This document shows, in pieces, positions 17,358 to 35,788 of a stretch of DNA of 36,046 nucleotides (positions within the stretch are counted from its first letter, which is position 1; every line of letters starts with the position of its first letter). The stretch spans positions 1 through 36,046 of the forward strand of contig CAZHMA010000001.1 of NCBI GenBank assembly GCA_964533555.1, read 5' to 3'. Position numbers and translations under genes: made by a program. Under the pieces are notes generated by a model. It did no database searches. It saw nothing but the letters and a program-made list of their open reading frames with translations, and was not told where the DNA came from. This DNA is from an uncultured Eubacteriales bacterium. GTDB lineage: Bacteria; Actinomycetota; Coriobacteriia; Anaerosomatales; PALSA-660.

Positions 17358-17368
17358 GCGCTCGTCGC

Positions 17369-19271: not shown

Positions 19272-19715
19272 CTAGCGCGTCTTGAGCGGCTTCGGGATCG
19301 CGCCCGTGGCGACGTCCTGGGCGTCTGAGATGACCCAGCCGGCGGCGTCTCGTCTCAGCGCGAACAGCGTCGCTGACGCCCACCCGGGGTGCGTCTTGTC
19401 GACGACCCAGACGACCACGACCTCCGCCCGGGCGGTCTCTTCCTTACTGACGTACGGCGCCTGCCATTCGGGGATCGGCGCCACCGTGGTTGTGGAGGCC
19501 TTCGCGGCGTCGGCGAGTGCGGTCGCCACGGCCGACTCCTCGAACCGCGGCGCGTACGAGGCCACGTCCTTGACCTGGTCGCGACGCAGCTCCAGCGCCT
19601 TCTGAACGGTCGCCGCGGCCGGGTCCGTGACCGTGGCCGCGGCACAGCCGGCAAGGGCCAAGACAGCGGCGGCCAACACCACCAGCGCGGATCGTGCGAC
19701 CCACGTCCCGGCCAT
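19272..19715 (-). CDS. small lipoprotein, unknown function
   Basis: The signal peptide has the lipobox LALAGC (MAGTWVARSALVVLAAAVLALAGCAA). The ATG at 19715 shares one base with the ccsA stop (TGATG). Confidence 0.65.
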   Translation of the reverse strand: MAGTWVARSALVVLAAAVLALAGCAAATVTDPAAATVQKALELRRDQVKDVASYAPRFEESAVATALADAAKASTTTVAPIPEWQAPYVSKEETARAEVVVVWVVDKTHPGWASATLFALRRDAAGWVISDAQDVATGAIPKPLKTR

Positions 19716-20554: not shown

Positions 20555-21966
20555 GACGCCTCCTCCGAACCCGCTGCTGCGCGCAAGACCGCCTCGATCC
20601 GTTCGTGGAAGATCGGGTCGCGCCGGGCGTGCCAAACCCTCGCCCGCAGGATCACGGCGCCATCCTCTGTTGCGATGGTGACACCCACACGACGCAGCGG
20701 GGCGAGCACCGCCACGCCCAGACCGCCGACCGCGACCACAAAGATCCCGTATAGGAACGGAACGGACCAATCGTTCGCCACGGAGACGCTGGCCCAGTCC
20801 TTGACCTGAACCAGCCGCAGCCGTTCCCCGCCTGGCAGCGGCACGGTGTCGCCCTCCGCCACGACCGTCGACGTCGACGCACCGGATTCGGGCGTGAGCA
20901 CCTCGACGAGGGCACGGCTGCGTCCCGGCGTTTGAGTCGCGGCGACCGATGACGCTCCCGTGAGCACCTGAAGGCGCACCTCGACGGCGGTGCCCCCGGT
21001 GCTCGACGCCGCAACGAACGACTGCGGAACGGTTCCGCTCTCGGTGCTCGTACTCCGATCCAGGAGGAGCGTGCCGCGGGCGATCTCGCCACCGTACGGT
21101 CGCTCGACCGCGACGACGGCAGCGGGTCCGAAGTCGACCATGTGAACGAGCAGGCTTCCTACCCGAAGCGGGCTGTTGGGATACACGCGACCCGAAGCGA
21201 TCTCGTCTCCGTCGCGCCAAGCCGAGATACGAGGCGCAGCGCCATAGTCGACGTTGCCGACGCGATAGTGGCGGACGATGTCGGTAGCCACCAACTCGAT
21301 GCCCGTGAATCTCGCGCCGAACAGCGGCGACTCAGCGATGCTCCGGTAGTTGGCGCGCTCATCCGCGACGCGCTCGCCCTCTGGAAGGCCCATGACGCCT
21401 TCGGCGCGCGTCGCCTGTCCTGCGGCAGCGACCAGGATCAGGCCGACGATCGCCCAGTGAAAGACGGCGCTGGCCACCGGGCCGGCGCCCCCCGCCCTGC
21501 CGTACGCAAGGCCGTCTCCGCTGTCGACTCGCAGTCTCAGGCGCCGCAGACGGCGGGCCGCGTCGAACAGGACGTCTTCGGCGTCACGGGTATCAGCGAC
21601 CTGTAGCACGATCTGCGCGTGTTCCGTCACATGGCCGGCGAGACCCTCCGGCACTCGTGTCACCGACTGGATGGAGCGGCGCGCACGGACAGTGCGCTCC
21701 GTGGCGCATGCCGCGGTGGACGCGACCAGAAGCGCCATCGTCGCCATGAAGAGCGGCGACGCAAATCCTCTGAACAGGCCGAGCGGTCCGGCGATCGCGG
21801 CGGCAACCGGGTGCGCCGTGGACCATGTCCTCACTGAGGGGTCGGTTGCGGCGCCACGCGGCACCAGTGTGCCGATGACGGCGTAGGCGAGCAGTCCCGT
21901 GATCAGGACCGCCGCGAGGCGCCTGGATCTCAGCGCCCGCACAAGGCGCTTCCACGCCCCTGACAT
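20551..21966 (-). CDS. ccsB: cytochrome c biogenesis (system II) protein ResB/CcsB
   Basis: N-terminus WKRLVRALRSRRLAAVLITGLLAYAVIGTLVP, a large extracytoplasmic loop and a C-terminal TM. It is coupled to ccsA. Confidence 0.8.
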   Translation of the reverse strand: MSGAWKRLVRALRSRRLAAVLITGLLAYAVIGTLVPRGAATDPSVRTWSTAHPVAAAIAGPLGLFRGFASPLFMATMALLVASTAACATERTVRARRSIQSVTRVPEGLAGHVTEHAQIVLQVADTRDAEDVLFDAARRLRRLRLRVDSGDGLAYGRAGGAGPVASAVFHWAIVGLILVAAAGQATRAEGVMGLPEGERVADERANYRSIAESPLFGARFTGIELVATDIVRHYRVGNVDYGAAPRISAWRDGDEIASGRVYPNSPLRVGSLLVHMVDFGPAAVVAVERPYGGEIARGTLLLDRSTSTESGTVPQSFVAASSTGGTAVEVRLQVLTGASSVAATQTPGRSRALVEVLTPESGASTSTVVAEGDTVPLPGGERLRLVQVKDWASVSVANDWSVPFLYGIFVVAVGGLGVAVLAPLRRVGVTIATEDGAVILRARVWHARRDPIFHERIEAVLRAAAGSEEAS

Positions 21967-22487
21967 CAGGGCGTCTCCGGAGCGAGTGTGCCCACCTGGC
22001 TCGCGGGCACGGTAGCCGTCGCACTGATCGCCCTGACGTCGGTCACCTGCCAGGACCCGTCACCGACTCGTGTCAGGTCCCAAGACAGGTCGTAGACCAG
22101 GCCCTCCTGAGTCAGCACCAGCGCGCCCGTCTTGCGGGAGTAGTGCCTGTAGTCCCACGTCTCCCGGGTCTCAGCGAGCGCCGAGGTGCCCTCCACGCTC
22201 ACCTTGACGAATCTGAGGTCGCGCAGCGTCGGGTCCAACCGGACACCCCCCTCCGCGAGCGATGACATGTGTATGTACTCATCCTCCGCCTGAAGCTGGG
22301 ACGCCACTTCGCGCATGCCGTTCATGTTCAGCGAGCGATACCCGTCGGCGAGTATCTCGTCGTAGCGCTGGATCGTGGAGCGGATCGCGCGCTCGTCCGG
22401 GGACAGCGATGAGCAGCCCGCCAGCACGAAGGCGGCAAGCAGCAGCGCGGCCGTGAGTCGCCGGGTGCGAGCGATGACTAGGGTCAT
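21966..22487 (-). CDS. small lipoprotein, unknown function
   Basis: MTLVIARTRRLTAALLLAAFVLAGCSS has the lipobox LAGC. The stop shares one base with the ResB ATG (TGATG). I chose the start at the Met at 22487. The track ORF begins at 22529. Confidence 0.65.
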   Translation of the reverse strand: MTLVIARTRRLTAALLLAAFVLAGCSSLSPDERAIRSTIQRYDEILADGYRSLNMNGMREVASQLQAEDEYIHMSSLAEGGVRLDPTLRDLRFVKVSVEGTSALAETRETWDYRHYSRKTGALVLTQEGLVYDLSWDLTRVGDGSWQVTDVRAISATATVPASQVGTLAPETP

Positions 22488-22562
22488 TTGTTCTACCTCG
22501 TTCACGCCATGGGGCCGCGCGAGCATCATGCCACGCTTGGCGACGAACGCGTCAGTAGGGCG

Positions 22563-25500
22563 CTACCACGACTCGGCGTTGACGTTCGTGGACGACGCCG
22601 AATGCTGCCCACAGCTACGCTGACCGCAGTCGGCGGCCTGCCAGTTGATATCCGCTCGCTTGATGTACCACGTTAGCCAGCCGCCACGGGATCCTTGCGT
22701 TCCGCGGTTGCCCTGGCCATCGGCTGTGTACCGCAGCGGCAGGTTGCCCGGGTAGCCCGTCACGGTCGCGTCCTTGCCGGTTGCGCTCAGAAGTCGAGAT
22801 ACCTTGCCCCCATGTGGGACTCGGATGTGGCAGGCAACGCAAGGCTCGTTGTGGTCGCCGCGGGCGTGGAGATCCTGGCCCGAAGCTGCGCTGTCGATGT
22901 TGTGACAGTTACGGCAGAAGAGGCCGTCCGCGGTGTCCAGACTCGTGTCCCATCCGCTGTAGCCGGTCCCAGCCGCGGCCGTCGATTGCCGGAAGCCGGT
23001 CAGCGCACTCGAGCCGTTAGCCGCCGCGGTACTGTAGGGCCACGCCTGGTTGGGGCCCTTCAACATCCACTTCACGGAGCTCCCGTGTGGTCCGAGCGAG
23101 CCCGCGTTGCTCTCTGCGTGACAATCGGAGCAGTACATGGTGCTGCCGCGCGTCCAACCACCGTAAGAGACGCCCCCGACCGTGAACGCAGGGCGCAGCT
23201 GGGCGGCCTGGCTGAGCTGGCTCGACCCGTTCGCGCCGGGGTCCGTCGCCGGAAGTGCTGCGATGACCGGATGATAGGACTGATTGCTCGTGGAGAACTC
23301 GAGTCCGACATCGGTCCATGCCGTCGAACCCGTGCCGCCCCAGGTGATGAGCGTCGTCTGCCCCTGTGCACTCGTGTTCTGGTTGAATCCTGAGTGGCAT
23401 CGGAAGCAGATCTGATACTCCTTGGTGGCCGGATCGACCGTGGTGTACCCGGTCGGCGAAGTCCAGTTGCCGGTGGCGAGCGTCGGCTCTGCCCCCTGCA
23501 CTCCCTGGAGAGCGCCGGAGACTGCGTTGGTTCCGCGACTGTGACGCGTAGCCTGCGCGGCGTGCACATCGTGGCAATCGGCACACTCGACGTGGCGGTT
23601 GGCGCTCAGGTACGCCCTTGTCTCGTCCGTCGGCGACGGACGATGGATGCCATCGTAGCTGCCGACCAAGTGCGCCCATCCCCCCGAAGACGCCCATGTC
23701 CAGGGGATCGCGGTGGGCGCCCGCAGGTAGCCGGGGGCCGTGGTTCCCCATGAGTAGGTGAGGCCGTAGTTGCCGGCGGTCGTGACCGCGTTGGTCTGCA
23801 CGCCGAGGTCGACGACTATCTTGTCGCCCGGGTTGAGCGTCACAGCCACGCCGTTGGCCGTTGCGAACGTCTGCACCGTACCCGGAACCGCGGTGGTTCC
23901 CATCTCGGTGGTCGCGTATCGTTGCGCAGTCACCACGTCGGTCTTCGTGGCGTTGTCCGCACGCCACACGTATATGTAGTAGAAGACGTACGCGTTGGCG
24001 TTGGCGCTCGACTCGCGGTCAAAGACCGATACGTTCCAGGCACCCGCGGCGACGTTCGTGGTCGATGCCACCGGCGGCGAGACCAGCCGCAGCCTGCGCC
24101 AGTTCTGGGTGCCCGCAGGCACCGCGTACGTCGCGGTATCGAAGCTCTCGACCGCGACCGACGCCGCGCTCGGAGCCATGAGCCGCTGGGTGAACGCTCC
24201 GCTCACGTTGTAGTACGTGACACCCTGGTCGCCGGTCGGCGCGTTGCCGGACACCGATCCGTCGGTATTCGGACGGAAGTAGAGCGTCGCGTTGCTGGTG
24301 GTCGCTTGGGGCGTCCCGAGCTGCATGAGGTCGTAGATGTTCTCGGCCGTGACCGACGTGGCGATCATGTTGTACCAGTCGCGGCCCGCGGTCGCCTTGA
24401 AGCCGTCCGCGCTCTGGCTGTGGCACTTGTAGCAGTTGTCCTCCTCGTGCGGAGGCTCGGTCAGCGCCACGCCCATGGCGGCCAGGATCCGGCGCTGAGC
24501 ACTGTAGTGTGTGCTGAACTTGTTGACGGAGCTCTGGAAGCCGACGGTCTTGGTGCCGACCTCCATGCCGCCGTTGTTCGACTCGTCGTCGTGGCACTTC
24601 ACACAGTTGCCGTTGAACGTGGACGCGTCCGAGCCGAATGTCGAAGGTGCGGTGTAGTCGTGCGCGGAGACGTTGTAGCCGGCCGACGTGATGATCGGCA
24701 GGGTCGTGGAGTTGGTCTCCGCCTTCTGGTCCGCGTTGTCGCGCGTCAGCGCCGTGCTGTGGCAGCTCAGGCAGACGCCGCCGTTCACGTTGTTGTAGTC
24801 GGTGTTGGTGTCGTCCGCTGCGGTCGGCGTCGCGGCGCCGATCGTCGAGCGCAGGTTGCTGGCCCGCGTGTAGGTGCCCACGACGTTCGGGTCGAACAGG
24901 TCGTGGTCGACATGACACGACAGGCAGAAGACCTCCTGGCGGAAGTTCGCGTCGCCGCTCAGGGGATAGGTGAGCGTGTCGCCGCTGCGCGTGGCGTTGC
25001 CCATCACGTGATGGTACGACGAGGCACGGCTCGGGCCGACGGTGGCCAGAACGCTGTCTTCCATGTAGTTCTGGTACACGGTGTGGCACGTGTAGCACGG
25101 GATCTTGCCCTTGGACTCGCCGCCCGTCGGGTTGTGCACGTTGGCCGAGGTCGAGAGGGCGAAGTCATCGCCGTGGCACAGGTAGCACGAGTACGTGGTG
25201 TCGCCGACACGGTGGCCGACATAGGCCGGGAGCTTCAGCACGCCGCCCGTGCGCGAGATGCCGAGTACCTGGTCGGCGGGCAGCGCGACCGTGAAGCCAC
25301 CGGCGCCGTTGTACCCGGCTCCCGTGTCGGAGGTCGTGTGGCAGCTGAAGCAGAAGTTGCGCACGTTGCTGGCGGTCACCTGGCCGAGCGCGGTCATGTT
25401 GAGCTGGCCGGCGGTGGCCCCGACAGTGAGCGAGGCGCCGTTGAGCTGAGTCGGCACGAGGAGCCCGTATCCGTTGCCGGCCCCGTGCGGGTTGTGGCAT

Positions 25501-28500
25501 GCGCGGCACGGCACCGCGCTTCCGGCGGCCATCGTCCCGGCGGTCTTGGTCCGGTGGCCGTAGCGCGAGCCTCCGCCGCCCGCGGCACCCGGCAGCGCCA
25601 CTGACTGGACCGCTTCGCCGGTCACGCCGGTCGGGTAGTAGCGGGCGATGTTGGCGCTCGCCGCCGCGCCGCCGGTCCGGTGACACGCCAGGCACTGCGC
25701 CTCGTCAACCGTGTCGCTGTAGGTGGCCACGCTCTGCCCGTTGACGGACGTCTTGAGCAGGTGCACCAGGGAGGACCCATGCTGCTCGTGGCAGGTACGG
25801 CACGACACCGAGGCCGCCGCGCTGCCGTGGCCGTCGACGGCGTAGTTGGCGTCCACGTCCGCCGACGCGCCGGCGGTGACGGTCCACGGGATGAGCGTGG
25901 TTCCGTTGACCGTCTGGGTCGGCAACCCACCGTCATGGCACTTGAGACAGTAGACGTTGGCCGTGGCCGTGGTGGTCAGCGAAGCCGTGTTGTAGATGTT
26001 GTCCGGGTCCGCCGCGGGAACGGCGGCCGTGGCCGCGTGCACGTTGTGGCAGTTCTCGCAGGTGACCTTGGTGAGGTCGTGCTTCGAGGTCATCGCGAAC
26101 TCGGCCTGGGTCGCGTTCGCAGGCGCAGGCAGCACCGCGCCGTACGGCTGCGAGGTCGCGTTGTGACACTTCAGGCACGCCTCTTCGTGCGGCAGGTTGG
26201 AGGTGAACACGCCCAGCGCGCTCAGGATGCCGGCCGAGGCGCTCCAGTGGGTCCCGAACCGGTAGGTCGACGTCTGGAAGCCCTTCGTCTGCTCATCGCT
26301 GTGGCACTTCGAGCAGTTCGCGTTGAACGTCGATGTCCCGAAGCTCGACGCGACCGTGTAGTCGTGCGCCGACGCGTCGAAGACCGCGCCGCCGATCACC
26401 GGAGTGTTCGCCGCCCCGAGGCTGGCCTGATCGGTCCCCGGGTTCTGCTTGGCCAGCGAAGTCGCGTGGCAGCTGACGCAGATGCCCGTCCCGCCGGCGA
26501 TGAAGTCGGTGTTGGCCGTGCTGTTGCCCGCGGCGGCGATGCCGGTGCGCAGGTTCGCGCCCTTGGTGGCGTTGAAGTAGTTGTGGTCGGTGTGACAGCT
26601 CACGCAGTAGACGTCGGTCTGGGAGGTCGGGTACGAACCGAGCGTGGCGTTGGGCGCGATGTCGCCGTCGCCCAGGGCGCCGCCCATCACGTGGTGGACC
26701 GATGCTGCCCGGCCGGGGCCGATCTTGGGAGCGACCCCGTCCTCCAGATTCGTCTGATACGCGATGTGGCACGCGTAGCAGGGACCGCCGCCGGTCGACA
26801 CACCGCCGCTGGGGTTGTGCACGTTGTTGCCGGTCGGGCTGTAGTCGTTGCCGTGGCACACGTAGCACGACTGCGAGTCGGCCGCGTGGTGGCCGTTGAC
26901 GTCCGGAAGCCGAAGGACCTGGCCCGTGGTGGTGGTGACGCGGCTGATGCCCTCGACCTTGTCGGTGGCCAGGACGTTCGCGACCATCGCCGAGCCGTTG
27001 TAGCCCTGCGCGGTCGCATCGCTCGTCGTGTGGCAGACGAAGCAGTAGTTGCGGACGTTGACGGCGGTCGCCTGGTCCGTCGGGCTCATGCGGATCTGGT
27101 TCGCCGTGGCACCGACGGCCACGGTGTTGCCGTTGATCATCGTCCGCACCTGCAGGCCGTACGCGGAGCCCGACCCGTGCGGGTTGTGGCAGTCGTAGCA
27201 CGGAAGTGCGGAGCCTGCCGGCAAGTTGCCCGCGGAGCGCGTCTTGTGGCCGTAGCGCGTGGACGCGGTCTGGACCCCGGTGCCGCCGACGGTGGTCGGG
27301 AAGTACGCGCTCATGTCGCGCCCGGGAGTGCCGTCGTGGCAGTTGAAGCAGAAGCCGGAGTCGGCCTGGTTGTAGTGGTACTGGTCCGCGACGCCGGCGG
27401 CGTTCTCGGTACGCAGCTCGTCGTAGGTGTTGGCGGTCCCGTGGACGTCGTGGCAGTTCTTGCAGTCGCCGCCGGGGTAGAGCTTGCCGGGCCACGTGGC
27501 CGTGGCGGTGGTGTGGAAGCTGCCTGTGTGCGCACCGTTGGCGTCGTACGTCGTGGTGTACACGCCCTGGCCCGGCCAGGTGCCTGCGGTCGGGTAGCCG
27601 GAAGTGGTCAGGCTCGGCACCGGGAACGGCGCCAACGAGGTCGCGTGGCAGGCGTAGCACACCGTGTTGTCGTTGGCGGTCACCACGACGCCGTCGATCT
27701 GGCTGTTCTTGGCGACCCCGTCGTAGTCGCCGAGGAGCTTCGGCGCCTTCGACCCGTGCGCGTCGTGGCATATCAGGCAGGTCGTGGCCGAGTAGAGCGA
27801 GGCGTACCCCGTCAGCGACCAGTGCCCGCGCGCGGCGTTGGTGGACTTGTTCATGTCCGGCTTGACCATCGTGACGGAGACCGGCACGAACGTCGTGTCG
27901 GTGCTGCCGGCGACCGGCGTGGTTCCGTCATGACACTTCAGGCACAGCGCGGCCTCGTCGGACGACGTCCACGCGGCGAGCTTCAGCGTGTTGTCCGGGT
28001 CGGTGGGCGCGTTATTCGCCTTGGTCACGTGGGGGTTGTGGCAGCTCGAGCACTCCACACGTCCCGTGGACAGCGGGTGCGTGGAGACCATCGAGCCTTC
28101 GAAGTTCGCGTAGATGTACTCGGAGGGCGCGCCCATCGCATGACCGGCGCTTCCGTACACATCGAAGCCGTTGCCGGCCTTGCCTCCGGCCAACTCACCC
28201 GCGCGCGAGTGGCAGCGATAGCAGAACTTCTCCTCCATGGGATCGGCGACCGTCGCACCGAGCGCGGCCACGATCCGCCTGCTGGAACTCTCGTGCGTGC
28301 CGAACCGGTACGTCGAGGTCTGGTAGTCCTTGGCCTTGGCGTCGTTGTGGCACTTGGAGCAGTTCGCGTTGAACGTCGCGGACACGCTGAACGACGACAC
28401 GACCGAGTAGTCGTGCGCGGAGACATCGAACGCCGCACCGCCGATGACCGGGGTGATCGTGCTCGGGTCGGCGGTGGCCGAGTTGGCCGATGAGGCCTGG

Positions 28501-31500
28501 TTGGCCGTGTCCTTCGTGATCGCCGTGGAGTGGCAGCTCACGCACACGCCGTAGGTCCCGCCGGACATGAAGTCGGTGTTGGTGGTCGTGCTGCCCGCCG
28601 CGGCGATGCCGGTGCGCAGGTTCGCGCCCTTCGCCAGGTTGAAGTAGTTGTGGTCGGTGTGGCAGCTGACGCAGAAGACGTCGGTCTTCGAGGTCGGATA
28701 CGGGTCGGTTCCCGGTGCCAGGTCGCCCGTGTAGCTGACCGTGTCCGTGCCCACCACGTGGTGGTACATCGAGGTCTTGGCCGGGCTCGCCGCGTCCATG
28801 GTCTGGTACTGCGCGTGACAGGCGTAGCAGCCGATCGCGCCCGGTGAGACGCCCGGGCCCGGACGGTGGACGTTGTAGCCTTCCACGCCGTAGTCGTTCA
28901 TGTGGCACTGGTAGCAGGACTGCGCGTCCCCCATCGCGTGGCCGTTGACGACCTTGAGGCGCAGCCAGTTGTAGCCGCCGTCCGGCCCGGAGGTCGCCCC
29001 GCCGCCGGCCCGGCCGAGGCCGGCGACCTTCATCGTGTTGTTGACGACCGCGTAGGCGCCGCCGACGCTGTCCCATCCGTAGGGGGTCGCGTCGGAGGTG
29101 GAATGGCAGGTCAGGCAGAAGCGGCGAACGCCCGCGGGCCCGGCCGCCGTGCTCAGGTTGGCCCCGAGCGTGTCGCTGATCATCGAGGCGTTGCCGCGGC
29201 TCGAGCCGTGCGGATTGTGGCACTCGTAGCACGGCAGCGGCGCATTGACGGGCAGCGATGCGTCGATGGACTTGATCCGATGCCCCGAGTTCTCGCCGTT
29301 CTGTGCGCCCAGGTACGTGGCGAAGCTCTTGATGTCCGGCGCGCCCATCCGCTGACCGGTGTCATGGCAGGCGAAGCACGACGCGGCGTAGGTGCCGTTG
29401 GCGCGATCGTCCGCCACGGTGGCCGTGGTCGACGGGCCGTAGGTGGTCAGCAGGCTGTCGTACTTGCTCGGCCCGCGGTGCGCCGCGTGGCAGTAGAGGC
29501 AGTCGCCGTCGACCCGCACGTCCGGCGAAGTGGACGCCGGCATCAGCACGTGCGCGTTCTTCGCGCTGTCGTTGTAGACGCTCGCCCCGGGGAACGTGCC
29601 GAAGACCGGATAGCCCGAGGCGTCACGCGTCGGGGCGGCGAGCGCCGGATACGCGGTCCCGTACTTCTGCACGTACCAGTCCTGCGCGTCGTTGTGGCAG
29701 GCCAGGCACCAGGTGTTGTTCTGCCCGGTCACGTTGTTGCGGGTGACCGAGTTGATGGTGGAACGCCACAGCACCGGCCTGGTCTTGAAGTCCATGTGCG
29801 GGGAGTGGCAGGCGGAGCAGGCGTTGGTCAGGTCGCTCGGAGTCGTCGTGTCGACCAGGCTCTCCAGGGTGTGCCCGCTCCGGAGTGCGAAGGAGTTGGT
29901 GGCGCCGGTCTTGATGTTCGTCGTGGACCCGGATCCGTCGTGGCACGCGTAGCACAATGGGGCTTCGCCGGAGCCCGAGCCGAGCGCCGTGAACAAGCCC
30001 TGGTACGTCGCGGCCACGTGCACCTTGTGGCACGTCTTGCACATGCTGGTCGCGGTGTACGTCGTGTGCGGGGACGGCGTCCACGTGGCGGTGACCGGGC
30101 CGACGGCCGCGGACGGCGCCGACTCGTTCGCTGCCGCGTCGTACGCCGAGACCTTGTAGTAGTAGGCCTGCCCGGTCACGCCGGACGTGTCGGCGAAGGC
30201 CGTCGTGGTGGTCGTGCCGATGGAGGCGTAGGTACCGGCCAGGGTGGTCGAACGCCATACGCGGTAGCCGGTCACGGCCACGTTGTCGGTTGACGCGGTC
30301 CACGTGACGCGCGCGATGGTCGGCTCCGTGACGCCCACGCTCACGGCCACCGAACCCGGGACGGTCGGCGCCGTTGCGTCAACGCCGAAGCCCGTGAAGC
30401 CCTTGGTGGCCAGGACGTTGGCGTTGCCCGCCAGGTCGAGCACGGAGTGGCCGACCCCCGGGTCGATGGTGAGCGTGTACGCCGTGAGGATGCCCTGTGT
30501 GCTCGTCGTCAGGCGCACCGTCTTGTTGTCGGCCTGGAGCACCGCCGCGCTGACCGTGAGGCCGTTGTTCATGGCGAAATCGGAAGCCGCGATGCTGCCG
30601 CTCTGGAGCGCCTCGGAGAAGACCACGTCCACGCTCGTGGCGCTGAGCGCTGTGGCGGACACGATGGTCGGCGGCGTGTTGTCGACCGTGATGCCGGTGC
30701 GCGTGGCGGTGGTGGTGTTCGCCACGTTGTCGATCGCCCGCGCGATGAGGGTGTAGGTCGGGGACCCGTTCTGGCCGGCCGGGCTGAAGGCCCACGACAT
30801 CGTCCAGTCCGCCCACGCGTTGGCGGTGGACGCGGGGTTCCACGTCTGGCCGGCGGCCCATGTGCTGCCGGCGGCGTTCCAGTACCAGTTGTCGCCGCTG
30901 CGCTGGATCGACACCGCGACCGCGCTCACGCCCGAGCCGCCGGTGTCGACGGCCGTACCGGTGACGGTGTACGGCCCGGCGGCCGTGAGCGCCGCGTTGT
31001 TGGCGGCGGGCGCCGTGACCGCGACGGTCGGACCGCTGGCGTCGACCGTGAACGTGTTGCCCGCGACCGCCTGGTTGTCCAGCGCCGTCGCGCCGCTGGA
31101 GACCGAGAAGACGGCGCTGCGCTCGACGGCCCCGTTCGCGGCCGTACCGGAGATCACGTACACGATCCAGTACTTGGTGCCGTCGCTGGCCGGGAAGATC
31201 GGCGCCGGGATCAGCGAGACCACCGAGTCGGTACCCGTGAATGTCCCGGTGCCCATGAGCGTATCGGCCACGGTGTAGACGTTGTCGCCATTGTCCTGGT
31301 AGATGCGCACGCCGCTGACGCCGACCGCGCCTGAGTCACGCACCGTCACGAAGGGGGCGCTGAAGCTGGTGGCGCCCGCCACCCGCGACATGGTGAAGCC
31401 ATCGACCCAGACCATCGCGCCCGGCACGACGTAGGCGGCAGCGGGCTGGTTCACCGACTGCACGCGCAGCTTGGTCCCGAAGCCCGTGAAGGTCGTGGTG

Positions 31501-34097
31501 CTGGCGGCGACGATGGCGTTGCCGGCCGCGTCGGTGACGTTGTTGACGGTGATGGTGTAGAGGGTGCCCGGGTCCTGAGTCGCGACCGTGAGGCGCACCG
31601 TCTTGTTGTCGGCCTGCAGCGCGGCTGCGCTCACGGCCAGGTTCGGCCCCGTGATCGAGTAGTTCGTCGACGTGTTGGCCGTGGCGGCGGTCAGGTTCTC
31701 GGAGAAGAGCACGTCGACGTGCGTCGAGTCGACCGGCGTGGCCGAGACGATGGTCGGCTTGGTGTTGTCGATCGTGATGCCCAGCCAGCCGGCCGAGTTC
31801 GTGTTGCCCACGACGTCGGTGGCCCGGGCGGTGATCACGTACGCAGGGGACCCGTTCTGGTTGGCCGGGTTGAAGGTCCACGAGGCGGTCCAGTTGGCCC
31901 ACGCGTTCGCGGTGGTCGCCGGGTTCCAGGTCTGCGTCGACGTCCACACGCCTCCGGCCTGGTCCCACCAGAGGTTGTCGCCGGTGCGTTGGATGGTGAC
32001 GGCCACCGCACCCACGCCGGAGCGAGCGTCGCCCGAGGTACCGGTCACGCTGTACGGACCGGCCCCGGTGATCACCGCGTTGTTCGCGGCGGGTGCCGTG
32101 ACAGCCACCGTCGGGTTCACGGCGTCGACGGTGAAGATGTTGCCGGCCGTCGCCGGCACGCCGGCCAGCGTGTCGACGTTGGCGGTGGTCATGGCCTGAA
32201 CGAGAGCGGTGGCTGTGGCGCCATCGGTCGCACCCGCGGCGAACGTGTAGACGACGAAGTACGTGCGGAGCGTGGCGTCCACGGCCTCGGCGGCCGTGAG
32301 CGTGACGGGCGCGTCGGTGCCCGTGAAGGTGCCAGATGTGGTGTTGAGCTTGGTGTCCGTGCCGGCGTCGTAGGTGCCGTTGGCGTTGGCGTCCCGATAG
32401 ATGTCGACCGCCGAGACGTTGGTGGCGGGAGCCGTGCCGCCGTTGCGGATCGTGATGGCGCTGACGGTGGACGCCTTGGACCCGCTGCGCTGCATGGTGA
32501 ACGCGTCGACTGCCACGGACTGCGACCGCGCCACGAAGGCCGCGGCGGGGTTGGTCCCGTTGCCCACGGTCACGACTGTGGACGAGTTGCTGATCGTCAC
32601 GCCGGTGATCGAGGCCGAGTTGCCTGTGTGCGCGACCCCGTCAGTGGCGCGGGCGATGATCGTGTAGCTGGGCGTGCCCGTCTGGTTCGCGGGGTTGAAG
32701 TTCCAGGTGTACGACCAGCTGGTGGTTCCCGATGTCACCGGGTTCCATGTCTGGGCGGCCGCCCACGTGCTCGTCCCGCCGTTCCAGTACCAGTTGTCGC
32801 CCGTGCGCTGGATGGAGACGGCCACGGAGGCCACACCCACAGAGTCAGCCGCTGTGCCGGTGATGGTCCCGGGGCTGGCCGTCGTGTACTGGAAGTTAGT
32901 GGTCGGCGCGGTCACGACTGCGGTCGGGTTGTTGACGTCCACGGTGAACGTGTTGCCGGCGGTAGGCGGGACACCAGTCACGTTCGACGTGTTCGTGGTC
33001 ATCGCCACCAACTGAGCCGAAGCCGTGGCGGCATCAGCCGCAGTCGCCGAGAACGTGTAGACGACGAAGTACGTCCGTAGCGTCCCGTCCACTGCCTCGG
33101 CTGCGGTCAGTAGAACGTCCGCGTCTGTACCAGTGAACACACCCGATGTCGTATTGAGCTTGGTGTCAGTGCCGGCGTCGTAGACGCCGTTGGCGTTCGC
33201 GTCCCGGTAGATGTCAACTGCAGCCACCGTGGACGCCGGTGTCGTTCCCGGGTTCCGAACCGTCATAGTCCAAACCTGCGTCGCCTGCGTTCCGACCGTA
33301 CGCTGCAGACGGAAGGAGTCGACGGCGACCGCCTGTGATCGAGCTACGGCGGCACTGGCAATCGCGACCGCGCCGTCCGTCACCGCGACGGTCGAGGTGA
33401 AGGCGGGAGTGTAGTCGACCACGACGTACATCTCGGTGATCGACAGGGTGCCGGTCGTGCCGGTGTCGATTTGGATCCCCGCATTGAGCGTGTTGATGTC
33501 CGCCCACGTCCACGCACCACCGGCCGGACGTGCCGTGCTCGTGATGGAATAGAGGGCGTACGTGTCGGTCAGCGCCTGACCGGTGACCGTAGTTCCATTG
33601 GTCGTGCCAGTCCTCACACGCATACGGGCAGTCGCAGTGTTCCCGGTATCCTTCCGCATGCGGTAGTAGACAGTCACCGAATTGATCGTGCCAGCAATAT
33701 TCGTGTCCACCTGGTCGAGATTCATGTATAGCCAGCTGGCAGCGGTCGTGGTCTGGCCCCTGGTCGCGTCCCCGTCATTGGACCGCAGATCGGTCGTTGC
33801 ACTGCTCGACCATGTCCATGCCGCGTTCGCCGTGTACATGCCCGTGGGATGCAGCGACCACGTCGTAGCGGCGAAGGCCGAGAAGATGTTCGCGCAGGTC
33901 ACGGCCACGAGCACGGCCACCATGACCAGGGCGGTGATCGCCTTGCCGCGCCGGCTCCCCCAGACAGCCCGAAACAGGCTTGCGGGAACCCCGCTCACCG
34001 TATCGGAACGTGCACTACTAGAGGCCTGTGGTGCCGCTCGGTTCAAACGCGTCCTCCCGGCTGCTGCCGTTGGGGCACGGATGCGTCTATCACGCAT
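22563..34097 (-). CDS. giant secreted multihaem c-type cytochrome (3,844 aa, 45 CxxCH motifs) with N-terminal Ig-like/Big_5/FN3 surface modules
   Basis: One uninterrupted ORF. The N-terminus is Sec-type: RRGK, then AITALVMVAVLVAVTCANIFSAFA|ATTW. I hand-counted 45 canonical CxxCH motifs, many of them as CxxCHxxH (the doubled-CXXCH style). Two starts are possible. The ATG at 34097 lies 6 nt after a TAGAAT box, which suggests a leaderless transcript. The TTG at 34046 has GGGAGG 6 nt upstream. Confidence 0.9.
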   Translation of the reverse strand: MRDRRIRAPTAAAGRTRLNRAAPQASSSARSDTVSGVPASLFRAVWGSRRGKAITALVMVAVLVAVTCANIFSAFAATTWSLHPTGMYTANAAWTWSSSATTDLRSNDGDATRGQTTTAASWLYMNLDQVDTNIAGTINSVTVYYRMRKDTGNTATARMRVRTGTTNGTTVTGQALTDTYALYSITSTARPAGGAWTWADINTLNAGIQIDTGTTGTLSITEMYVVVDYTPAFTSTVAVTDGAVAIASAAVARSQAVAVDSFRLQRTVGTQATQVWTMTVRNPGTTPASTVAAVDIYRDANANGVYDAGTDTKLNTTSGVFTGTDADVLLTAAEAVDGTLRTYFVVYTFSATAADAATASAQLVAMTTNTSNVTGVPPTAGNTFTVDVNNPTAVVTAPTTNFQYTTASPGTITGTAADSVGVASVAVSIQRTGDNWYWNGGTSTWAAAQTWNPVTSGTTSWSYTWNFNPANQTGTPSYTIIARATDGVAHTGNSASITGVTISNSSTVVTVGNGTNPAAAFVARSQSVAVDAFTMQRSGSKASTVSAITIRNGGTAPATNVSAVDIYRDANANGTYDAGTDTKLNTTSGTFTGTDAPVTLTAAEAVDATLRTYFVVYTFAAGATDGATATALVQAMTTANVDTLAGVPATAGNIFTVDAVNPTVAVTAPAANNAVITGAGPYSVTGTSGDARSGVGAVAVTIQRTGDNLWWDQAGGVWTSTQTWNPATTANAWANWTASWTFNPANQNGSPAYVITARATDVVGNTNSAGWLGITIDNTKPTIVSATPVDSTHVDVLFSENLTAATANTSTNYSITGPNLAVSAAALQADNKTVRLTVATQDPGTLYTITVNNVTDAAGNAIVAASTTTFTGFGTKLRVQSVNQPAAAYVVPGAMVWVDGFTMSRVAGATSFSAPFVTVRDSGAVGVSGVRIYQDNGDNVYTVADTLMGTGTFTGTDSVVSLIPAPIFPASDGTKYWIVYVISGTAANGAVERSAVFSVSSGATALDNQAVAGNTFTVDASGPTVAVTAPAANNAALTAAGPYTVTGTAVDTGGSGVSAVAVSIQRSGDNWYWNAAGSTWAAGQTWNPASTANAWADWTMSWAFSPAGQNGSPTYTLIARAIDNVANTTTATRTGITVDNTPPTIVSATALSATSVDVVFSEALQSGSIAASDFAMNNGLTVSAAVLQADNKTVRLTTSTQGILTAYTLTIDPGVGHSVLDLAGNANVLATKGFTGFGVDATAPTVPGSVAVSVGVTEPTIARVTWTASTDNVAVTGYRVWRSTTLAGTYASIGTTTTTAFADTSGVTGQAYYYKVSAYDAAANESAPSAAVGPVTATWTPSPHTTYTATSMCKTCHKVHVAATYQGLFTALGSGSGEAPLCYACHDGSGSTTNIKTGATNSFALRSGHTLESLVDTTTPSDLTNACSACHSPHMDFKTRPVLWRSTINSVTRNNVTGQNNTWCLACHNDAQDWYVQKYGTAYPALAAPTRDASGYPVFGTFPGASVYNDSAKNAHVLMPASTSPDVRVDGDCLYCHAAHRGPSKYDSLLTTYGPSTTATVADDRANGTYAASCFACHDTGQRMGAPDIKSFATYLGAQNGENSGHRIKSIDASLPVNAPLPCYECHNPHGSSRGNASMISDTLGANLSTAAGPAGVRRFCLTCHSTSDATPYGWDSVGGAYAVVNNTMKVAGLGRAGGGATSGPDGGYNWLRLKVVNGHAMGDAQSCYQCHMNDYGVEGYNVHRPGPGVSPGAIGCYACHAQYQTMDAASPAKTSMYHHVVGTDTVSYTGDLAPGTDPYPTSKTDVFCVSCHTDHNYFNLAKGANLRTGIAAAGSTTTNTDFMSGGTYGVCVSCHSTAITKDTANQASSANSATADPSTITPVIGGAAFDVSAHDYSVVSSFSVSATFNANCSKCHNDAKAKDYQTSTYRFGTHESSSRRIVAALGATVADPMEEKFCYRCHSRAGELAGGKAGNGFDVYGSAGHAMGAPSEYIYANFEGSMVSTHPLSTGRVECSSCHNPHVTKANNAPTDPDNTLKLAAWTSSDEAALCLKCHDGTTPVAGSTDTTFVPVSVTMVKPDMNKSTNAARGHWSLTGYASLYSATTCLICHDAHGSKAPKLLGDYDGVAKNSQIDGVVVTANDNTVCYACHATSLAPFPVPSLTTSGYPTAGTWPGQGVYTTTYDANGAHTGSFHTTATATWPGKLYPGGDCKNCHDVHGTANTYDELRTENAAGVADQYHYNQADSGFCFNCHDGTPGRDMSAYFPTTVGGTGVQTASTRYGHKTRSAGNLPAGSALPCYDCHNPHGSGSAYGLQVRTMINGNTVAVGATANQIRMSPTDQATAVNVRNYCFVCHTTSDATAQGYNGSAMVANVLATDKVEGISRVTTTTGQVLRLPDVNGHHAADSQSCYVCHGNDYSPTGNNVHNPSGGVSTGGGPCYACHIAYQTNLEDGVAPKIGPGRAASVHHVMGGALGDGDIAPNATLGSYPTSQTDVYCVSCHTDHNYFNATKGANLRTGIAAAGNSTANTDFIAGGTGICVSCHATSLAKQNPGTDQASLGAANTPVIGGAVFDASAHDYTVASSFGTSTFNANCSKCHSDEQTKGFQTSTYRFGTHWSASAGILSALGVFTSNLPHEEACLKCHNATSQPYGAVLPAPANATQAEFAMTSKHDLTKVTCENCHNVHAATAAVPAADPDNIYNTASLTTTATANVYCLKCHDGGLPTQTVNGTTLIPWTVTAGASADVDANYAVDGHGSAAASVSCRTCHEQHGSSLVHLLKTSVNGQSVATYSDTVDEAQCLACHRTGGAAASANIARYYPTGVTGEAVQSVALPGAAGGGGSRYGHRTKTAGTMAAGSAVPCRACHNPHGAGNGYGLLVPTQLNGASLTVGATAGQLNMTALGQVTASNVRNFCFSCHTTSDTGAGYNGAGGFTVALPADQVLGISRTGGVLKLPAYVGHRVGDTTYSCYLCHGDDFALSTSANVHNPTGGESKGKIPCYTCHTVYQNYMEDSVLATVGPSRASSYHHVMGNATRSGDTLTYPLSGDANFRQEVFCLSCHVDHDLFDPNVVGTYTRASNLRSTIGAATPTAADDTNTDYNNVNGGVCLSCHSTALTRDNADQKAETNSTTLPIITSAGYNVSAHDYTAPSTFGSDASTFNGNCVKCHDDESNNGGMEVGTKTVGFQSSVNKFSTHYSAQRRILAAMGVALTEPPHEEDNCYKCHSQSADGFKATAGRDWYNMIATSVTAENIYDLMQLGTPQATTSNATLYFRPNTDGSVSGNAPTGDQGVTYYNVSGAFTQRLMAPSAASVAVESFDTATYAVPAGTQNWRRLRLVSPPVASTTNVAAGAWNVSVFDRESSANANAYVFYYIYVWRADNATKTDVVTAQRYATTEMGTTAVPGTVQTFATANGVAVTLNPGDKIVVDLGVQTNAVTTAGNYGLTYSWGTTAPGYLRAPTAIPWTWASSGGWAHLVGSYDGIHRPSPTDETRAYLSANRHVECADCHDVHAAQATRHSRGTNAVSGALQGVQGAEPTLATGNWTSPTGYTTVDPATKEYQICFRCHSGFNQNTSAQGQTTLITWGGTGSTAWTDVGLEFSTSNQSYHPVIAALPATDPGANGSSQLSQAAQLRPAFTVGGVSYGGWTRGSTMYCSDCHAESNAGSLGPHGSSVKWMLKGPNQAWPYSTAAANGSSALTGFRQSTAAAGTGYSGWDTSLDTADGLFCRNCHNIDSAASGQDLHARGDHNEPCVACHIRVPHGGKVSRLLSATGKDATVTGYPGNLPLRYTADGQGNRGTQGSRGGWLTWYIKRADINWQAADCGQRSCGQHSASSTNVNAESW
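22827..23585 (-). other. C-terminal 5-haem module (residues 3505-3757)
   Basis: Motifs: CADCH (CHDVHAA, the same module-opening pattern as in modules A-C), CFRCH, CSDCH, CRNCH, CVACH. Confidence 0.75.
23586..24419 (-). other. haem-free, beta-rich insertion of about 278 aa (residues 3227-3504)
   Basis: It contains no Cys-x-x-Cys-His. It is rich in T/A/V/G/N with alternating hydrophobic patterns (VFYYIYVWRADN, IVVDLGVQTN), which is consistent with a beta-sandwich. Confidence 0.6.
24420..26060 (-). repeat. haem module C (residues 2680-3226, 12 CxxCH)
   Basis: Motif order: CENCH, CLKCH, CRTCH, CLACH, CRACH, CFSCH, CYLCH, CYTCH, CLSCH, CLSCH, CVKCH, CYKCH. This is a shortened copy of A and B. 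Confidence 0.8.
26061..28052 (-). repeat. haem module B (residues 2016-2679, 14 CxxCH)
   Basis: Motif order: CSSCH, CLKCH, CLICH, CYACH, CKNCH, CFNCH, CYDCH, CFVCH, CYVCH, CYACH, CVSCH, CVSCH, CSKCH, CLKCH. The order and flanking residues match module A. Confidence 0.8.
28053..30041 (-). repeat. haem module A (residues 1353-2015, 14 CxxCH)
   Basis: Motif order: CKTCH, CYACH, CSACH, CLACH, CLYCH, CFACH, CYECH, CLTCH, CYQCH, CYACH, CVSCH, CVSCH, CSKCH, CYRCH. Confidence 0.8.
30093..30374 (-). other. fibronectin type III domain (about residues 1242-1335)
   Basis: APTVPGSVAVS...ARVTWTASTDNVAVTGYRVWRS...YYYKVSAYDAAANES is the canonical bacterial FN3 pattern. Confidence 0.75.
30384..33395 (-). 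repeat. three tandem beta-sandwich/Ig-like modules (about residues 235-1238); modules 2 and 3 end in Big_5/SbsA-type Ig domains
   Basis: The anchor motif (V)DIYRDANANG[VT]YDAGTDTKLNTTSG[VT]FTGTDA occurs at residues 295 and 565. A diverged copy, RIYQDNGDNVYT, is at residue 932. Each module then has FTVD..PTVAVTAPAANN...SIQR[ST]GDNWYWN...TWNP. Modules 2 and 3 add DNT[KP]PTIVSAT...VD[VL][VL]FSE.L...LQADNKTVRLT. Confidence 0.8.
33870..33959 (-). other. signal peptide / N-terminal anchor of the giant cytochrome (about residues 47-76)
   Basis: Positively charged WGSRRGK, a 23-residue hydrophobic core, and an AFA|A cleavage-like site. Confidence 0.6.
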
Positions 34098-34103
34098 GCC
34101 ATT

Positions 34104-34109
34104 ATTCTA
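34104..34109 (-). promoter_or_regulatory. -10-like hexamer TAGAAT immediately upstream of the giant cytochrome ORF
   Basis: The minus strand reads TAGAAT-AATGGC-ATG, within the only clearly AT-richer stretch of the window (34098-34184). The -35 is weak (CTCCCT at 17-nt spacing). Confidence 0.35.
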
Positions 34110-34184: not shown

Positions 34185-34793
34185 TTACCGAGCTTCTTCC
34201 AGTAGTCTCTGGGCACGCGGGTACGCGGGAATCAGCTCCAATGCCGCCTTCAGATCCGTGCGTGCTGTCGGGCGGTCGCCGGCCTCCAGACGAGCCTGCG
34301 CAGCGTCGGTCAGCCACCCCGCGCGAAGGTCCCTGCTCGCGTCCGAGCTCCCCAGACGTTCCCATTCGGCGGCGGCGTCCGCCGCGCGCCCCAGGCTCAC
34401 GTACTGCCGCGCGAGCGCGTCGCTATAGGCGGCCGTTGACGGTTCCAGCCTCACAGCTCGGGCCAGGTGGTCGGCCGCCTGCGAGGCCTTCCCCGCCTCG
34501 GCCTCCTTGAGACCCAGCTGGTACCAGCCCTCAGCGTAGCCGGGGCGGTCCCGGGTCACTTGCGTCCAGTACGCCACCGCGCCCGCGAGGTCCGAAGGCA
34601 CCTTGCCCACCGGCGCCGATCCCCACGGGCGCCAACCAGCGGCGACGGCGAAGGCCCCGGCCGCCACGGCCAGCAGGACAAGCGCGATCGCGGCGACCTG
34701 CCACGCACGGATGCCGGCTACGCGACGTCCGACCGGGCGGCGCCCGGCTCGCTTGGCAGGACGGCGGGCAGGCTTCGGCGCGTGGTCGCCCAT
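34185..34793 (-). CDS. membrane-anchored TPR-like protein
   Basis: Arg-rich N-terminus and one TM segment (AWQVAAIALVLLAVAAGAFAVAAG). TPR-like helices follow (GYAEGWYQLGLKEAEAGKASQAADHLARAVRLEP...). The ATG at 34793 lies 2 nt after the NHL gene stop. Confidence 0.7.
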   Translation of the reverse strand: MGDHAPKPARRPAKRAGRRPVGRRVAGIRAWQVAAIALVLLAVAAGAFAVAAGWRPWGSAPVGKVPSDLAGAVAYWTQVTRDRPGYAEGWYQLGLKEAEAGKASQAADHLARAVRLEPSTAAYSDALARQYVSLGRAADAAAEWERLGSSDASRDLRAGWLTDAAQARLEAGDRPTARTDLKAALELIPAYPRAQRLLEEAR

Positions 34794-34795
34794 GG

Positions 34796-35788
34796 CTACT
34801 TCGCGCCAGTCAGGGTGAGCCCCTTGATGGTGCCCGATCCCACGTCGCTGACGAAGAGCTCGCCCGACGCGGCGTCCACGGTGATGCCCTGCGGGGACTC
34901 GATGGTCCCGCCACGGATGGTGGTGGCGCCGATCGTGAGGACGAGCCGGCCGTTCGCGTCGAACTGCAGGATCGCGCGACCGAAGCGATCGCACACGAAC
35001 ACGGTGCCGTCGGGGCCGGCGGCAACGGCGCGCGGCAGCTGCATGCGTGCCTGCAGGGATCCCGCGAGCCCTCCTGACCTGGCATCCAGGATGAGCCCCC
35101 GGCCCGCGTTGGAGTCGGTCACGTACAGCCGGCCACCGGACACGGCCATGCCGCCCACGAAGGTCAGCGGCGGCTCCAGGTCGCTGCCGATGGCTCGCTT
35201 GAACCGCCCGTCGGCGGCGAAGACCTTGATGTCGTGATCGACGCCATCCGCCACGAAGACCTCGCCTTCGGCGACGGTGACGGCCGTGGGCTGCTTCACG
35301 ATGGCGCCCTTGGCCGAACTGCCGAAGACGAGCGGCTTGGCGGGCGACTTCGGATCGATCGCGACGGTGACCACGCGGTTGCCGGCGGTATCGGCGACCA
35401 CAAGGCGATCCGCGTCGAGCACGGCCAGGGCGACCGGGTAGGCCTTGGAGGCCCCGGCGGCCACGGGAACGGTCAGGCGGCCGGCGGCCTCGCCCTCCGG
35501 GGTGAACAGCGCGATGGCGCCGGCGTCCGCCTCCGCCACCGCCAGGACCTTGCCGGTCCACGCGATGCCGAGAGGGCTCGCCAGCGGGACCGCGGGCGAC
35601 AGCGGGAACTCGTCACGCAGGGATGCTGTGCCGGTGGTCTCGACCGAGGGCTCAGTGGCCGGCTGCCGGGGCGCGGGACGACCGACGAGCAGCCACACCA
35701 CGGTGGCCACCGCGGCCAGCAGGATGACGATCGCCACAGCGGTGAGGGTCTTCGGGGAGACTCCCCGACGCGGTCCACGAGCGGGCAA
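34796..35788 (-). CDS. NHL-repeat six-bladed beta-propeller protein with N-terminal TM anchor
   Basis: The TTG at 35788 has GGAGG 5 nt upstream. The TM segment is LTAVAIVILLAAVATVVWLLV. Six repeats follow of the form P.gia.d..g.l.V.D..n.ri..f, for example RLVVADTAGNRVVTV, EVFVADGVDHDIKVF, RLYVTDSNAGRGLIL, TVFVCDRFGRAILQF and ELFVSDVGSGTIKGL. Confidence 0.8.
   Translation of the reverse strand: MPARGPRRGVSPKTLTAVAIVILLAAVATVVWLLVGRPAPRQPATEPSVETTGTASLRDEFPLSPAVPLASPLGIAWTGKVLAVAEADAGAIALFTPEGEAAGRLTVPVAAGASKAYPVALAVLDADRLVVADTAGNRVVTVAIDPKSPAKPLVFGSSAKGAIVKQPTAVTVAEGEVFVADGVDHDIKVFAADGRFKRAIGSDLEPPLTFVGGMAVSGGRLYVTDSNAGRGLILDARSGGLAGSLQARMQLPRAVAAGPDGTVFVCDRFGRAILQFDANGRLVLTIGATTIRGGTIESPQGITVDAASGELFVSDVGSGTIKGLTLTGAK

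Follow-up and report, generated by a model that had tools for sequence, protein, structure and literature searches.

A 45-haem cytochrome fused to Ig-like surface modules and encoded beside a ResB-CcsA pair in the Coriobacteriia

What would a bacterium with a Gram-positive wall do with a single polypeptide that carries 45 haem c attachment sites? The question is raised by a stretch of 36,046 nucleotides (nt) from an uncultured bacterium of the Anaerosomatales (contig CAZHMA010000001.1), called the window throughout, in which one open reading frame (ORF) encodes a giant predicted cytochrome:

22563..34097, minus strand: giant cytochrome ORF, 3,844 amino acids including the signal peptide, 45 CxxCH motifs

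With moderate confidence, and from its sequence features, we favour the reading that this protein is a wall-spanning or surface conduit for outward extracellular electron transfer. Such a role had been suggested in an original prediction made from the DNA letters, and it is supported by haem domains of the MtrC type, by an adjacent ResB-CcsA cytochrome synthase pair, and by a collinear homologue in Parvivirga hydrogeniphila, a bacterium whose wall is Gram-positive and which lives by obligate Fe(III) reduction (PMC9686372). The "monoderm, high-GC" host assumed at the outset also fits. The best relatives of the topoisomerase I encoded in the window are 88% and 81% identical, every named match is a metagenome-assembled genome (MAG) of the Coriobacteriia, and cultured Anaerosomatales have a Gram-positive wall (PMC9686372).

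The giant gene is real and intact. Its frame, the longest ORF of the window, opens with an ATG and runs for 3,844 codons with zero in-frame stops, and its GC content at third codon positions (GC3) is 0.90 throughout, as expected of coding sequence in a window of 68% GC; the single uninterrupted 11.5-kb ORF described originally was thus recovered. We also obtained the same count of 45 CxxCH motifs (residues 1353-3753), which hold 90 of the 93 cysteines of the protein; 2,000 shuffled versions contained 0.07 such motifs on average and never more than 2. Fifteen of the 45 motifs take the form CxxCHxxH, and a motif scan of the full translation found no CX3CH or CX4CH variants. Forty motifs fall within residues 1353-3226, which reproduces the reported density of about one per 47 residues. 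The predicted mass of the mature protein is about 389 kDa, to which the haems would add about 28 kDa.

An internally repetitive gene from a metagenome-type assembly invites the suspicion that repeat expansion or collapse, or a chimeric join, produced an ORF that does not exist. Against this, the internal repeats are just 63-87% identical at the DNA level, which makes their collapse or expansion during assembly unlikely, and the frame stays open with the same GC3 along its whole length. Both the N- and the C-terminal end are kept in relatives, and termini and domain order match independent proteins of 2,000-4,600 amino acids, one of them from an isolate genome. The worry about an assembly artefact that accompanied the original prediction thus finds little support: we regard such an error as very improbable, and it is the one rival explanation excluded in practice.

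The haem-bearing part of the protein consists of three haem units, a haem-free insert and a C-terminal module:

27828..30080, minus strand: haem unit 1, residues 1340-2090, 16 CxxCH
26118..27827, minus strand: haem unit 2, residues 2091-2660, 12 CxxCH
24321..26117, minus strand: haem unit 3, residues 2661-3259, 12 CxxCH
23631..24320, minus strand: haem-free inserted beta-sandwich, residues 3260-3489, no CxxCH
22566..23630, minus strand: C-terminal 5-haem module, residues 3490-3844, with invariant SYHPV, GPHGS and PHGGKVSRL

Self-comparison showed that the three haem units are diverged copies of one unit of 12-16 haems. When they were aligned with a 935-residue relative, 10 CxxCH motifs and 11 further histidines were invariant in the unit core. 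Judged from this alignment, the 11 extra histidines would be enough for bis-His ligation of every haem in the core, and because the invariant histidines allow such ligation throughout, the signature is one of electron-transfer rather than catalytic haems. Among the curated models, MtrC/MtrF domain II/IV (PF22113) matched 10 stretches with 187.8 bits against a cut-off of 30, and Cytochrome_C7 (PF14522) reached 136.3 bits (cut-off 24.8). The doubled-CXXCH style noted earlier is borne out by Paired_CXXCH_1 (PF09699; 139.5 bits, cut-off 20.6) and by the NCBIfam doubled CXXCH model TIGR01905 (70.4 bits, cut-off 25.2), both above their curated cut-offs. The decahaem models for DmsE/MtrA (TIGR03508; 108.5 bits) and GSU2203 (NF041028; 69.1 bits) remained under theirs (192.2 and 325, respectively).

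The shorter relatives P0001 and P0003 lack the inserted beta-sandwich, and P0273 and the related protein of another Coriobacteriia MAG (locus L001) have it; Foldseek gave weak jelly-roll or carbohydrate-binding-module-like matches for it and nothing else. The C-terminal module that follows has a lower haem density, with 5 haems in 355 residues and 14 histidines for these five haems. Its non-haem cysteines are two in number and stand at the extreme C-terminus, and it has no CxxCK or odd haem motif. A search with this module returned 270 relatives at E <= 1e-5; judged from these, it defines a large, strongly conserved and unnamed family. We considered the pentahaem selenoenzyme MccSep as an identity for the module and rejected it, the signature …HSIPDGUPTPNR being absent and the haem part having no free cysteine. 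Sequence searches of the solved structures found no cytochrome relative for the whole protein, for one haem unit or for the C-terminal module. The module also occurs free-standing, in proteins of about 350-1,040 amino acids, in Desulfobulbaceae, Persephonella, Ignavibacteria and others.

Ahead of the first haem unit lies a haem-free stretch of about 1,260 residues built of beta-sandwich domains:

33399..33869, minus strand: N-domain, residues 77-233, a beta-sandwich with motifs GTINSVT and PAGGAWTW
32586..33398, minus strand: surface repeat 1, residues 234-504, a beta-sandwich of about 165 residues and a Big_7-like immunoglobulin-like (Ig-like) domain
31449..32585, minus strand: surface repeat 2, residues 505-883, a beta-sandwich of about 165 residues, a Big_7-like Ig domain and a Big_5 domain
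30378..31448, minus strand: surface repeat 3, residues 884-1240, with the three domains of repeat 2, its Big_5 domain being the second of the protein
30099..30371, minus strand: probable FN3 domain, residues 1243-1333, matching the solved FN3 structure 1k85

By self-comparison the three surface repeats are mutually 37-66% identical, with a self-similarity of 61-66% between repeats 1 and 2. The whole-protein Pfam scan placed Big_5 (PF13205) in 2 stretches at 35.4 bits against a cut-off of 23.6; the copy in repeat 2 (residues 777-871) reached 41.3 bits (E 2.9e-10), and the Big_7 match in repeat 1 was weak. The probable FN3 domain scored 20.5 bits in Pfam, below the cut-off of 25, and matched PDB 1k85, from chitinase A1, over 91 residues with E 2.6e-6. 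The other N-terminal modules fall into no Pfam family. AlphaFold modelled residues 77-510 as all-beta tandem beta-sandwiches with a mean predicted local distance difference test (pLDDT) of 79; in repeat 1 values were mostly 80-95, and Foldseek led from this repeat to tandem Ig/FN3 arrays. The N-domain, modelled as beta-strands, matched no Pfam family and is kept in the related proteins P0121 and P0123; from its sequence distribution we take it to be a general surface domain.

The earlier description of the protein as a secreted multihaem cytochrome fused to haem-free Ig-like and probable FN3 modules is upheld by the signal peptide, the 45 CxxCH motifs and the beta-sandwich array. Its further wording, "S-layer-like", is not supported. 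Pfam found no SLH or archaeal S-layer domain, and Big_5 and the modelled folds match adhesins and titin about as well as an S-layer protein. Foldseek searches of the PDB with the model of residues 77-510 returned alpha-2-macroglobulin, the SiiE adhesin, CbhA FN3 modules, titin and a Haloferax S-layer protein, and this archaeal S-layer protein (7ptu) was one among many unrelated Ig arrays that match about as well. The models thus confirm the Ig-like fold class, and the resemblance to S-layers is only a generic fold likeness. As a separate observation, the N-domain is found in haem-free proteins of unrelated metagenome contigs (loci L005-L015), mostly of low GC (31-46%), where it is sometimes in tandem and where some carriers resemble phage or surface proteins.

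How such a protein leaves the cell and whether it stays attached to it depend on its leader:

33870..34097, minus strand: N-terminal leader, residues 1-76, with an Arg-rich n-region, a hydrophobic core and an AxA site

The only hydrophobic segment of the giant protein lies at about residues 50-80, with the hydrophobic core at about residues 54-72 and the cleavage site SAFA|ATTW after it. Relatives have AxA-type sites too (FQASA|AT, VAVA|AT and PAMG|DT). Because the hydrophobic core is followed by this AxA site, the leader is probably a cleavable Sec signal peptide rather than a membrane anchor. The original prediction had regarded the protein as N-anchored, which also founders on its geometry: about 1,260 cofactor-free residues would separate the membrane from the first haem, an arrangement that cannot carry electrons. 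A Tat signal (SRRGKA) was considered and rejected, as the motif is poor and System II cytochromes cross the membrane unfolded; c-type cytochromes matured by System II are exported in the unfolded state.

There are three candidate starts, the ATG at codon 1 (34097), a TTG at codon 18 and a GTG at codon 34, and the mature protein is identical whichever is used. A TAGAAT box lies 6 nt 5' of the first ATG (region 33990-34110, minus strand), which possibly points to a leaderless transcript. The TTG has a Shine-Dalgarno sequence, GGGAGGA, five bases ahead, and the GTG is the start in the public gene call for this protein (P0266). Promoter and terminator scans gave no signal above chance. We found neither an LPXTG-like motif (L[PA]xT[GAS]) nor a C-terminal hydrophobic segment in the giant protein, nor a Pfam match to SLH at E <= 0.1, and the cysteine near the signal peptide sits in VTC with no lipobox; the reported lack of a C-terminal anchor, SLH domain or LPXTG motif is in line with these searches and with the single N-terminal hydrophobic segment.

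Four genes follow the giant gene on the same strand:

21966..22529, minus strand: lipoprotein of 187 amino acids with lipobox LAGC and no Pfam family, its stop overlapping the resB start
20551..21966, minus strand: ResB/CcsB, System II cytochrome c synthase subunit (PF05140, E 8.7e-34)
19715..20554, minus strand: CcsA, System II cytochrome c synthase subunit (PF01578, E 8.2e-35)
19272..19715, minus strand: second lipoprotein, 147 amino acids, lipobox LAGC, no Pfam family, its ATG overlapping the ccsA stop

The giant gene ends 34 nt before the first lipoprotein gene, from where overlapping stop and start codons chain lipoprotein 1, resB, ccsA and lipoprotein 2. The inferred start of ccsA is an ATG overlapping the resB stop, with the Shine-Dalgarno sequence GGAGGAGG ahead. 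From this spacing, the giant cytochrome gene is predicted to head an operon with a lipoprotein, ResB, CcsA and a second lipoprotein, and the same operon supplies the cytochrome c maturation pair ResB-CcsA. The two LAGC lipoproteins may tether or chaperone the giant protein. The first of them is more conserved than the cytochrome, with 69% identity in L001 and 34% in a further Coriobacteriia locus, L016.

Flanking the operon are the following genes:

34185..34793, minus strand: membrane-anchored TPR protein, directly upstream, with an 87-bp gap to the giant gene
34796..35788, minus strand: NHL-repeat beta-propeller with an N-terminal transmembrane helix (PF01436, E 1.7e-19)
15258-19147, minus strand: B12-binding radical SAM protein, UbiE/MenG methyltransferase and amidohydrolase, after the cytochrome operon

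A membrane-anchored NHL propeller, a TPR protein or both stand ahead of related cytochrome genes at loci L003, L004, L016 and L017. The order B12-binding radical SAM protein, UbiE, amidohydrolase is repeated in L016 (17145-21070), and these three genes may form a quinone-related block. The remaining genes of the window are housekeeping ones, encoding DNA polymerase III delta', fumarase, malate dehydrogenase, topoisomerase I, TatC and STAS proteins. No second cytochrome is encoded within its 36,046 nt.

We then asked what the relatives of the giant protein say about it. Haem unit 1 was searched against 1.84 billion representative proteins and gave 470 relatives at E <= 0.001, 196 of them at E <= 1e-30; among the best 150, about 29 reach 2,000 amino acids or more. 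The top match (P0266) is the window protein itself from codon 34, which is thus already public. The 19 other retrieved relatives have 13-76 CxxCH each, and many of them share the full order of N-domain, Ig sets, FN3-like domain and haem units; the architectures include some with 31-76 CxxCH. Foremost among them is P0267 (MCL4079188.1 / WP_267192627.1) of Parvivirga hydrogeniphila Es71-Z0120, a protein of 4,629 amino acids and 61 CxxCH annotated "Ig-like domain-containing protein" or "cytochrome c3 family protein", which shares 43% identity with the window protein along 2,227 collinear residues. P0268, P0270 and P0274 are 41-43% identical to the window protein over 2,000-2,550 residues.

MCL4079188.1 and P0268-P0286 have, like the window protein, an N-domain, repeated beta-sandwich/Ig/Big_5 sets, an FN3-like domain and repeated haem units. 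The Parvivirga protein further shares with it the class Coriobacteriia, and at its locus (L017) a TPR gene stands before the cytochrome gene and ResB-CcsA after it. It differs in having 61 rather than 45 CxxCH, through extra copies of the haem unit, in ending with another, longer C-terminal module, and in lacking a beta-sandwich insert before the end module. The species paper on Parvivirga treats other cytochrome clusters without singling out the giant one, and its supplement does not contain MCL4079188 (PMC9686372). L017 also has a second ResB-CcsA pair a few genes further on, giving two pairs within 8 kb downstream (JAMCCO010000002.1, 23988-31509); by analogy with the extra CcmF beside the giant cytochromes of ANME archaea, this suggests that the two are dedicated cytochrome synthase paralogues.

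A scan of species-representative genomes gave one true relative, L001, in a Coriobacteriia MAG. Its ORF encodes 2,755 amino acids with 44 CxxCH, shares its last ~880 residues with the window protein at 46% identity, and is followed by the lipoprotein (69% identical), ResB (51%) and CcsA (66%). Another locus, L002 (Aminicella), was dropped as a relative, the FN3 segment alone being shared. P0121, a partial protein from the Coriobacteriia, has the same N-domain and repeats running directly into haem motifs. P0121, found by the N-terminal-module search, has an NHL gene upstream, and NHL genes lie beside related cytochromes in L003, L004 and L016. With TPR and/or NHL genes upstream and ResB-CcsA downstream, a family neighbourhood is common to the window, L001, L016 and L017. 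Also of note is P0123 (L003, 5654-7939), a 761-residue haem-free homologue of the N-terminal modules in a cluster of TPR, NHL, 7-haem cytochrome and TPR genes. P0123 ends abruptly within a domain on a contig of 1.2x coverage, and no frameshifted haem continuation was found on this low-coverage contig; it may be a genuine split version or an assembly break.

The origin of the giant architecture is suggested by L016, from another Coriobacteriia MAG. This locus begins with TPR, cytochrome, TPR and NHL genes and three cytochrome genes including a NapC/NirT-like one, continues with NHL, the 935-residue cytochrome P0071, ResB, CcsA and small ORFs (one a homologue of the lipoprotein), and ends with a Rex-like regulator, the B12-binding radical SAM protein, UbiE, amidohydrolase and STAS genes. 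In this syntenic locus P0071 occupies the slot of the giant gene. It has 18 CxxCH; its residues 5-732 are 44% identical to haem unit 1, and it is 41% identical to the C-terminal module. The giant protein looks like P0071 with three copies of the unit, an added beta-sandwich and, in front, about 1,260 residues of surface modules. We propose an 18-haem ancestor, from which the family would have grown as the haem unit was duplicated in tandem and surface modules were acquired.

Whether close homologues had been described was left open by the original prediction, and the answer is divided: they are numerous and annotated, but none is experimentally characterised. In the literature on Ig-like or FN3 multihaem fusions in monoderm bacteria, we found no paper describing this family. 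From these searches, the window protein is one more member of an existing, experimentally untouched family with dozens of public members.

Several known systems offer a comparison. Large multihaem cytochromes of Coriobacteriia-related Actinobacteria were reported from Horonobe deep sediments (PMC5520028) and from the anode-biofilm Coriobacteriales S27 (PMC7399161), and in both cases the cytochromes were taken as signs of iron or electrode reduction (PMC5520028, PMC7399161). These genomes share with the window the lineage and the inferred role, and they are rich in multihaem cytochromes with at least 10 haem motifs; the papers, compared here by description, give per-genome motif counts, whereas architecture, Ig-like fusion and operon are absent from them. 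The giant ANME cytochromes MHC-A, MHC-B and MHC-C have 20-86 haems; they join long haem arrays to haem-free surface domains and are proposed to conduct electrons across the outermost, proteinaceous layer of cells that have no outer membrane (PMC9012536). A dedicated cytochrome-maturation paralogue adjoins the gene (PMC9012536), as maturation genes do in the window, but this is CcmF of System I rather than ResB-CcsA of System II; MHC-A and MHC-B also have a DUF1608-type S-layer domain and a C-terminal transmembrane helix, both lacking from the window protein by Pfam and hydrophobicity. The ANME proteins would thus be a close functional parallel, analogues and not homologues of the window protein.

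A second comparison is with MtrC, OmcA and MtrF of Shewanella, to whose pentahaem II/IV model the haem region matches with the 187.8 bits given above; on this evidence it probably shares their close-packed bis-His arrangement for extracellular electron transfer. MtrC is a four-domain lipoprotein of about 670 residues docked on the diderm MtrAB porin complex, whereas the window protein is six times longer, is no lipoprotein, has 45 haems and no porin partner, and belongs to a Gram-positive lineage. In monoderms, OcwA of Thermincola potens and OmhA of Carboxydothermus ferrireducens are secreted cytochromes that act in the reduction of Fe(III) oxides at the cell surface, although no covalent anchor is recognised in them, and OmhA is loosely bound and can be sheared off (PMC7829351). 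They carry 9 and 11 haems and lack an Ig-like stalk, in contrast to the 45 haems plus stalk of the window protein, and no sequence similarity to solved structures, including OcwA, was detected for the modules tested.

In the conduit reading that we favour, the apoprotein would be threaded out unfolded by Sec, its leader would be cut at SAFA|ATTW after export, and its haems would be attached by the neighbouring ResB-CcsA pair. Menaquinol electrons would arrive via a membrane NapC/NirT-type cytochrome and small cytochromes, which are seen upstream in the syntenic L016 and whose place here would lie beyond the window edge. The 40-haem chain and the 5-haem end module would then relay electrons over tens of nanometres, while the Ig-like array, carrying no electrons itself, would hold the protein in the wall or surface layer or bind mineral. 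On the scale of MtrA and MtrC, ten haems cover about 7-8 nm. By this analogy 45 haems in line could span some 30-40 nm, comparable to a Gram-positive wall.

A number of points weigh against the conduit. Anaerosoma tenue has a similar number of multihaem cytochromes and does not reduce Fe(III) (PMC9686372), so multihaem cytochromes are insufficient for iron reduction. The giant protein is without a known wall anchor, whether SLH, LPXTG, lipobox or C-terminal helix, and could be released from the cell rather than attached; it may be retained by the two conserved lipoproteins or by the membrane proteins with NHL and TPR repeats. Inside the window there is no quinol dehydrogenase or partner cytochrome. 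The continuity of the haem chain is assumed: AlphaFold without haem gave a moderate model of the C-terminal 601 residues (pLDDT 69.6), and Foldseek returned for it weak beta-sandwich matches from the insert and no cytochrome, a haem-less model being uninformative on haem packing. Finally, the family is known so far from sequence alone, which tells neither the direction in which electrons flow nor the acceptor that takes them up.

This last point opens the way to an inward or bidirectional conduit that would bring electrons from Fe(II), a cathode, metallic iron or a syntrophic partner into the cell, for nothing in the sequence sets the direction and haem chains are in principle reversible, as in MtrCAB-type systems. 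However, the sole cultured host of a collinear homologue is a hydrogen- or formate-oxidising obligate Fe(III) reducer, and Fe(II)-oxidation markers were not found in the window, and we consider inward flow fairly unlikely. That the haems mainly store charge at the surface when no acceptor touches, as a capacitor or redox buffer, would suit the high haem load (45 here and up to 76 in relatives), and it has been put forward for other multihaem cytochromes of very large size (PMC7399161); transfer through space is suggested instead by the elongated, modular build of the protein, by its conserved end module and by its surface domains, and storage and wiring are compatible with each other. As the main function, storage seems unlikely to us.

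The end module itself could be catalytic, a terminal reductase of, for example, sulfur, selenium or nitrogen compounds fed by the long chain. Its low density of 5 haems in 355 residues, the invariant non-haem GPHGS and SYHPV motifs and its free-standing relatives in sulfur-cycling Desulfobulbaceae and Persephonella would agree with this, but the module has fourteen histidines for its five haems, no CxxCK and no free cysteine save the two at the extreme C-terminus, it lacks the MccSep signature peptide, and searches revealed no resemblance to NrfA, OcwA or other solved enzymes; we judge a reductase to be distinctly improbable. More improbable still would be a protein that is primarily a structural surface-layer component or adhesin with haems of secondary importance. 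One third of it consists of tandem Ig-like or FN3 domains as in adhesins and S-layer proteins, and the haem-free homologue P0123 sits inside a cytochrome cluster. Yet the other two thirds form a strongly conserved haem domain, four independent loci have a cytochrome synthase pair next to the cytochrome gene, and Pfam found no SLH or known lattice-forming domain.

A bolder extension of the conduit reading, which we offer tentatively and hold to be rather doubtful, sees these proteins as Gram-positive cytochrome nanowires: extended polypeptides of about 100 nm with a stalk in a layer or fibril, a continuous wire of 45-76 haems that would cross the wall and extend past it, and a dedicated ResB-CcsA. 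The stalk of roughly 12 Ig-like domains may build or insert into a surface layer or fibril, and ResB-CcsA may be a synthase specialised for threading and loading a 400-kDa apocytochrome. Parvivirga makes thin surface appendages solely during growth on ferrihydrite (PMC9686372), and in such a scheme these could be the giant cytochrome.

To our knowledge, Gram-positive export of electrons across a wall of tens of nanometres is known just from a few small Firmicutes cytochromes. The family would be a different solution, with one very long polypeptide, a built-in surface stalk and its own haem-attachment genes, in a host group, the Coriobacteriia, often met on electrodes and in subsurface habitats where iron is reduced. 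The window protein adds another member to this family and no new principle, and the family is as mechanistically attractive as it is unstudied. The locus would also record how such proteins grow, by duplication of an 18-haem protein of one unit and an end module and by addition of surface domains. Because a collinear homologue occurs in Parvivirga, which is in culture and is an obligate Fe(III) reducer, the hypothesis that these proteins wire the cell to its surroundings is directly testable.

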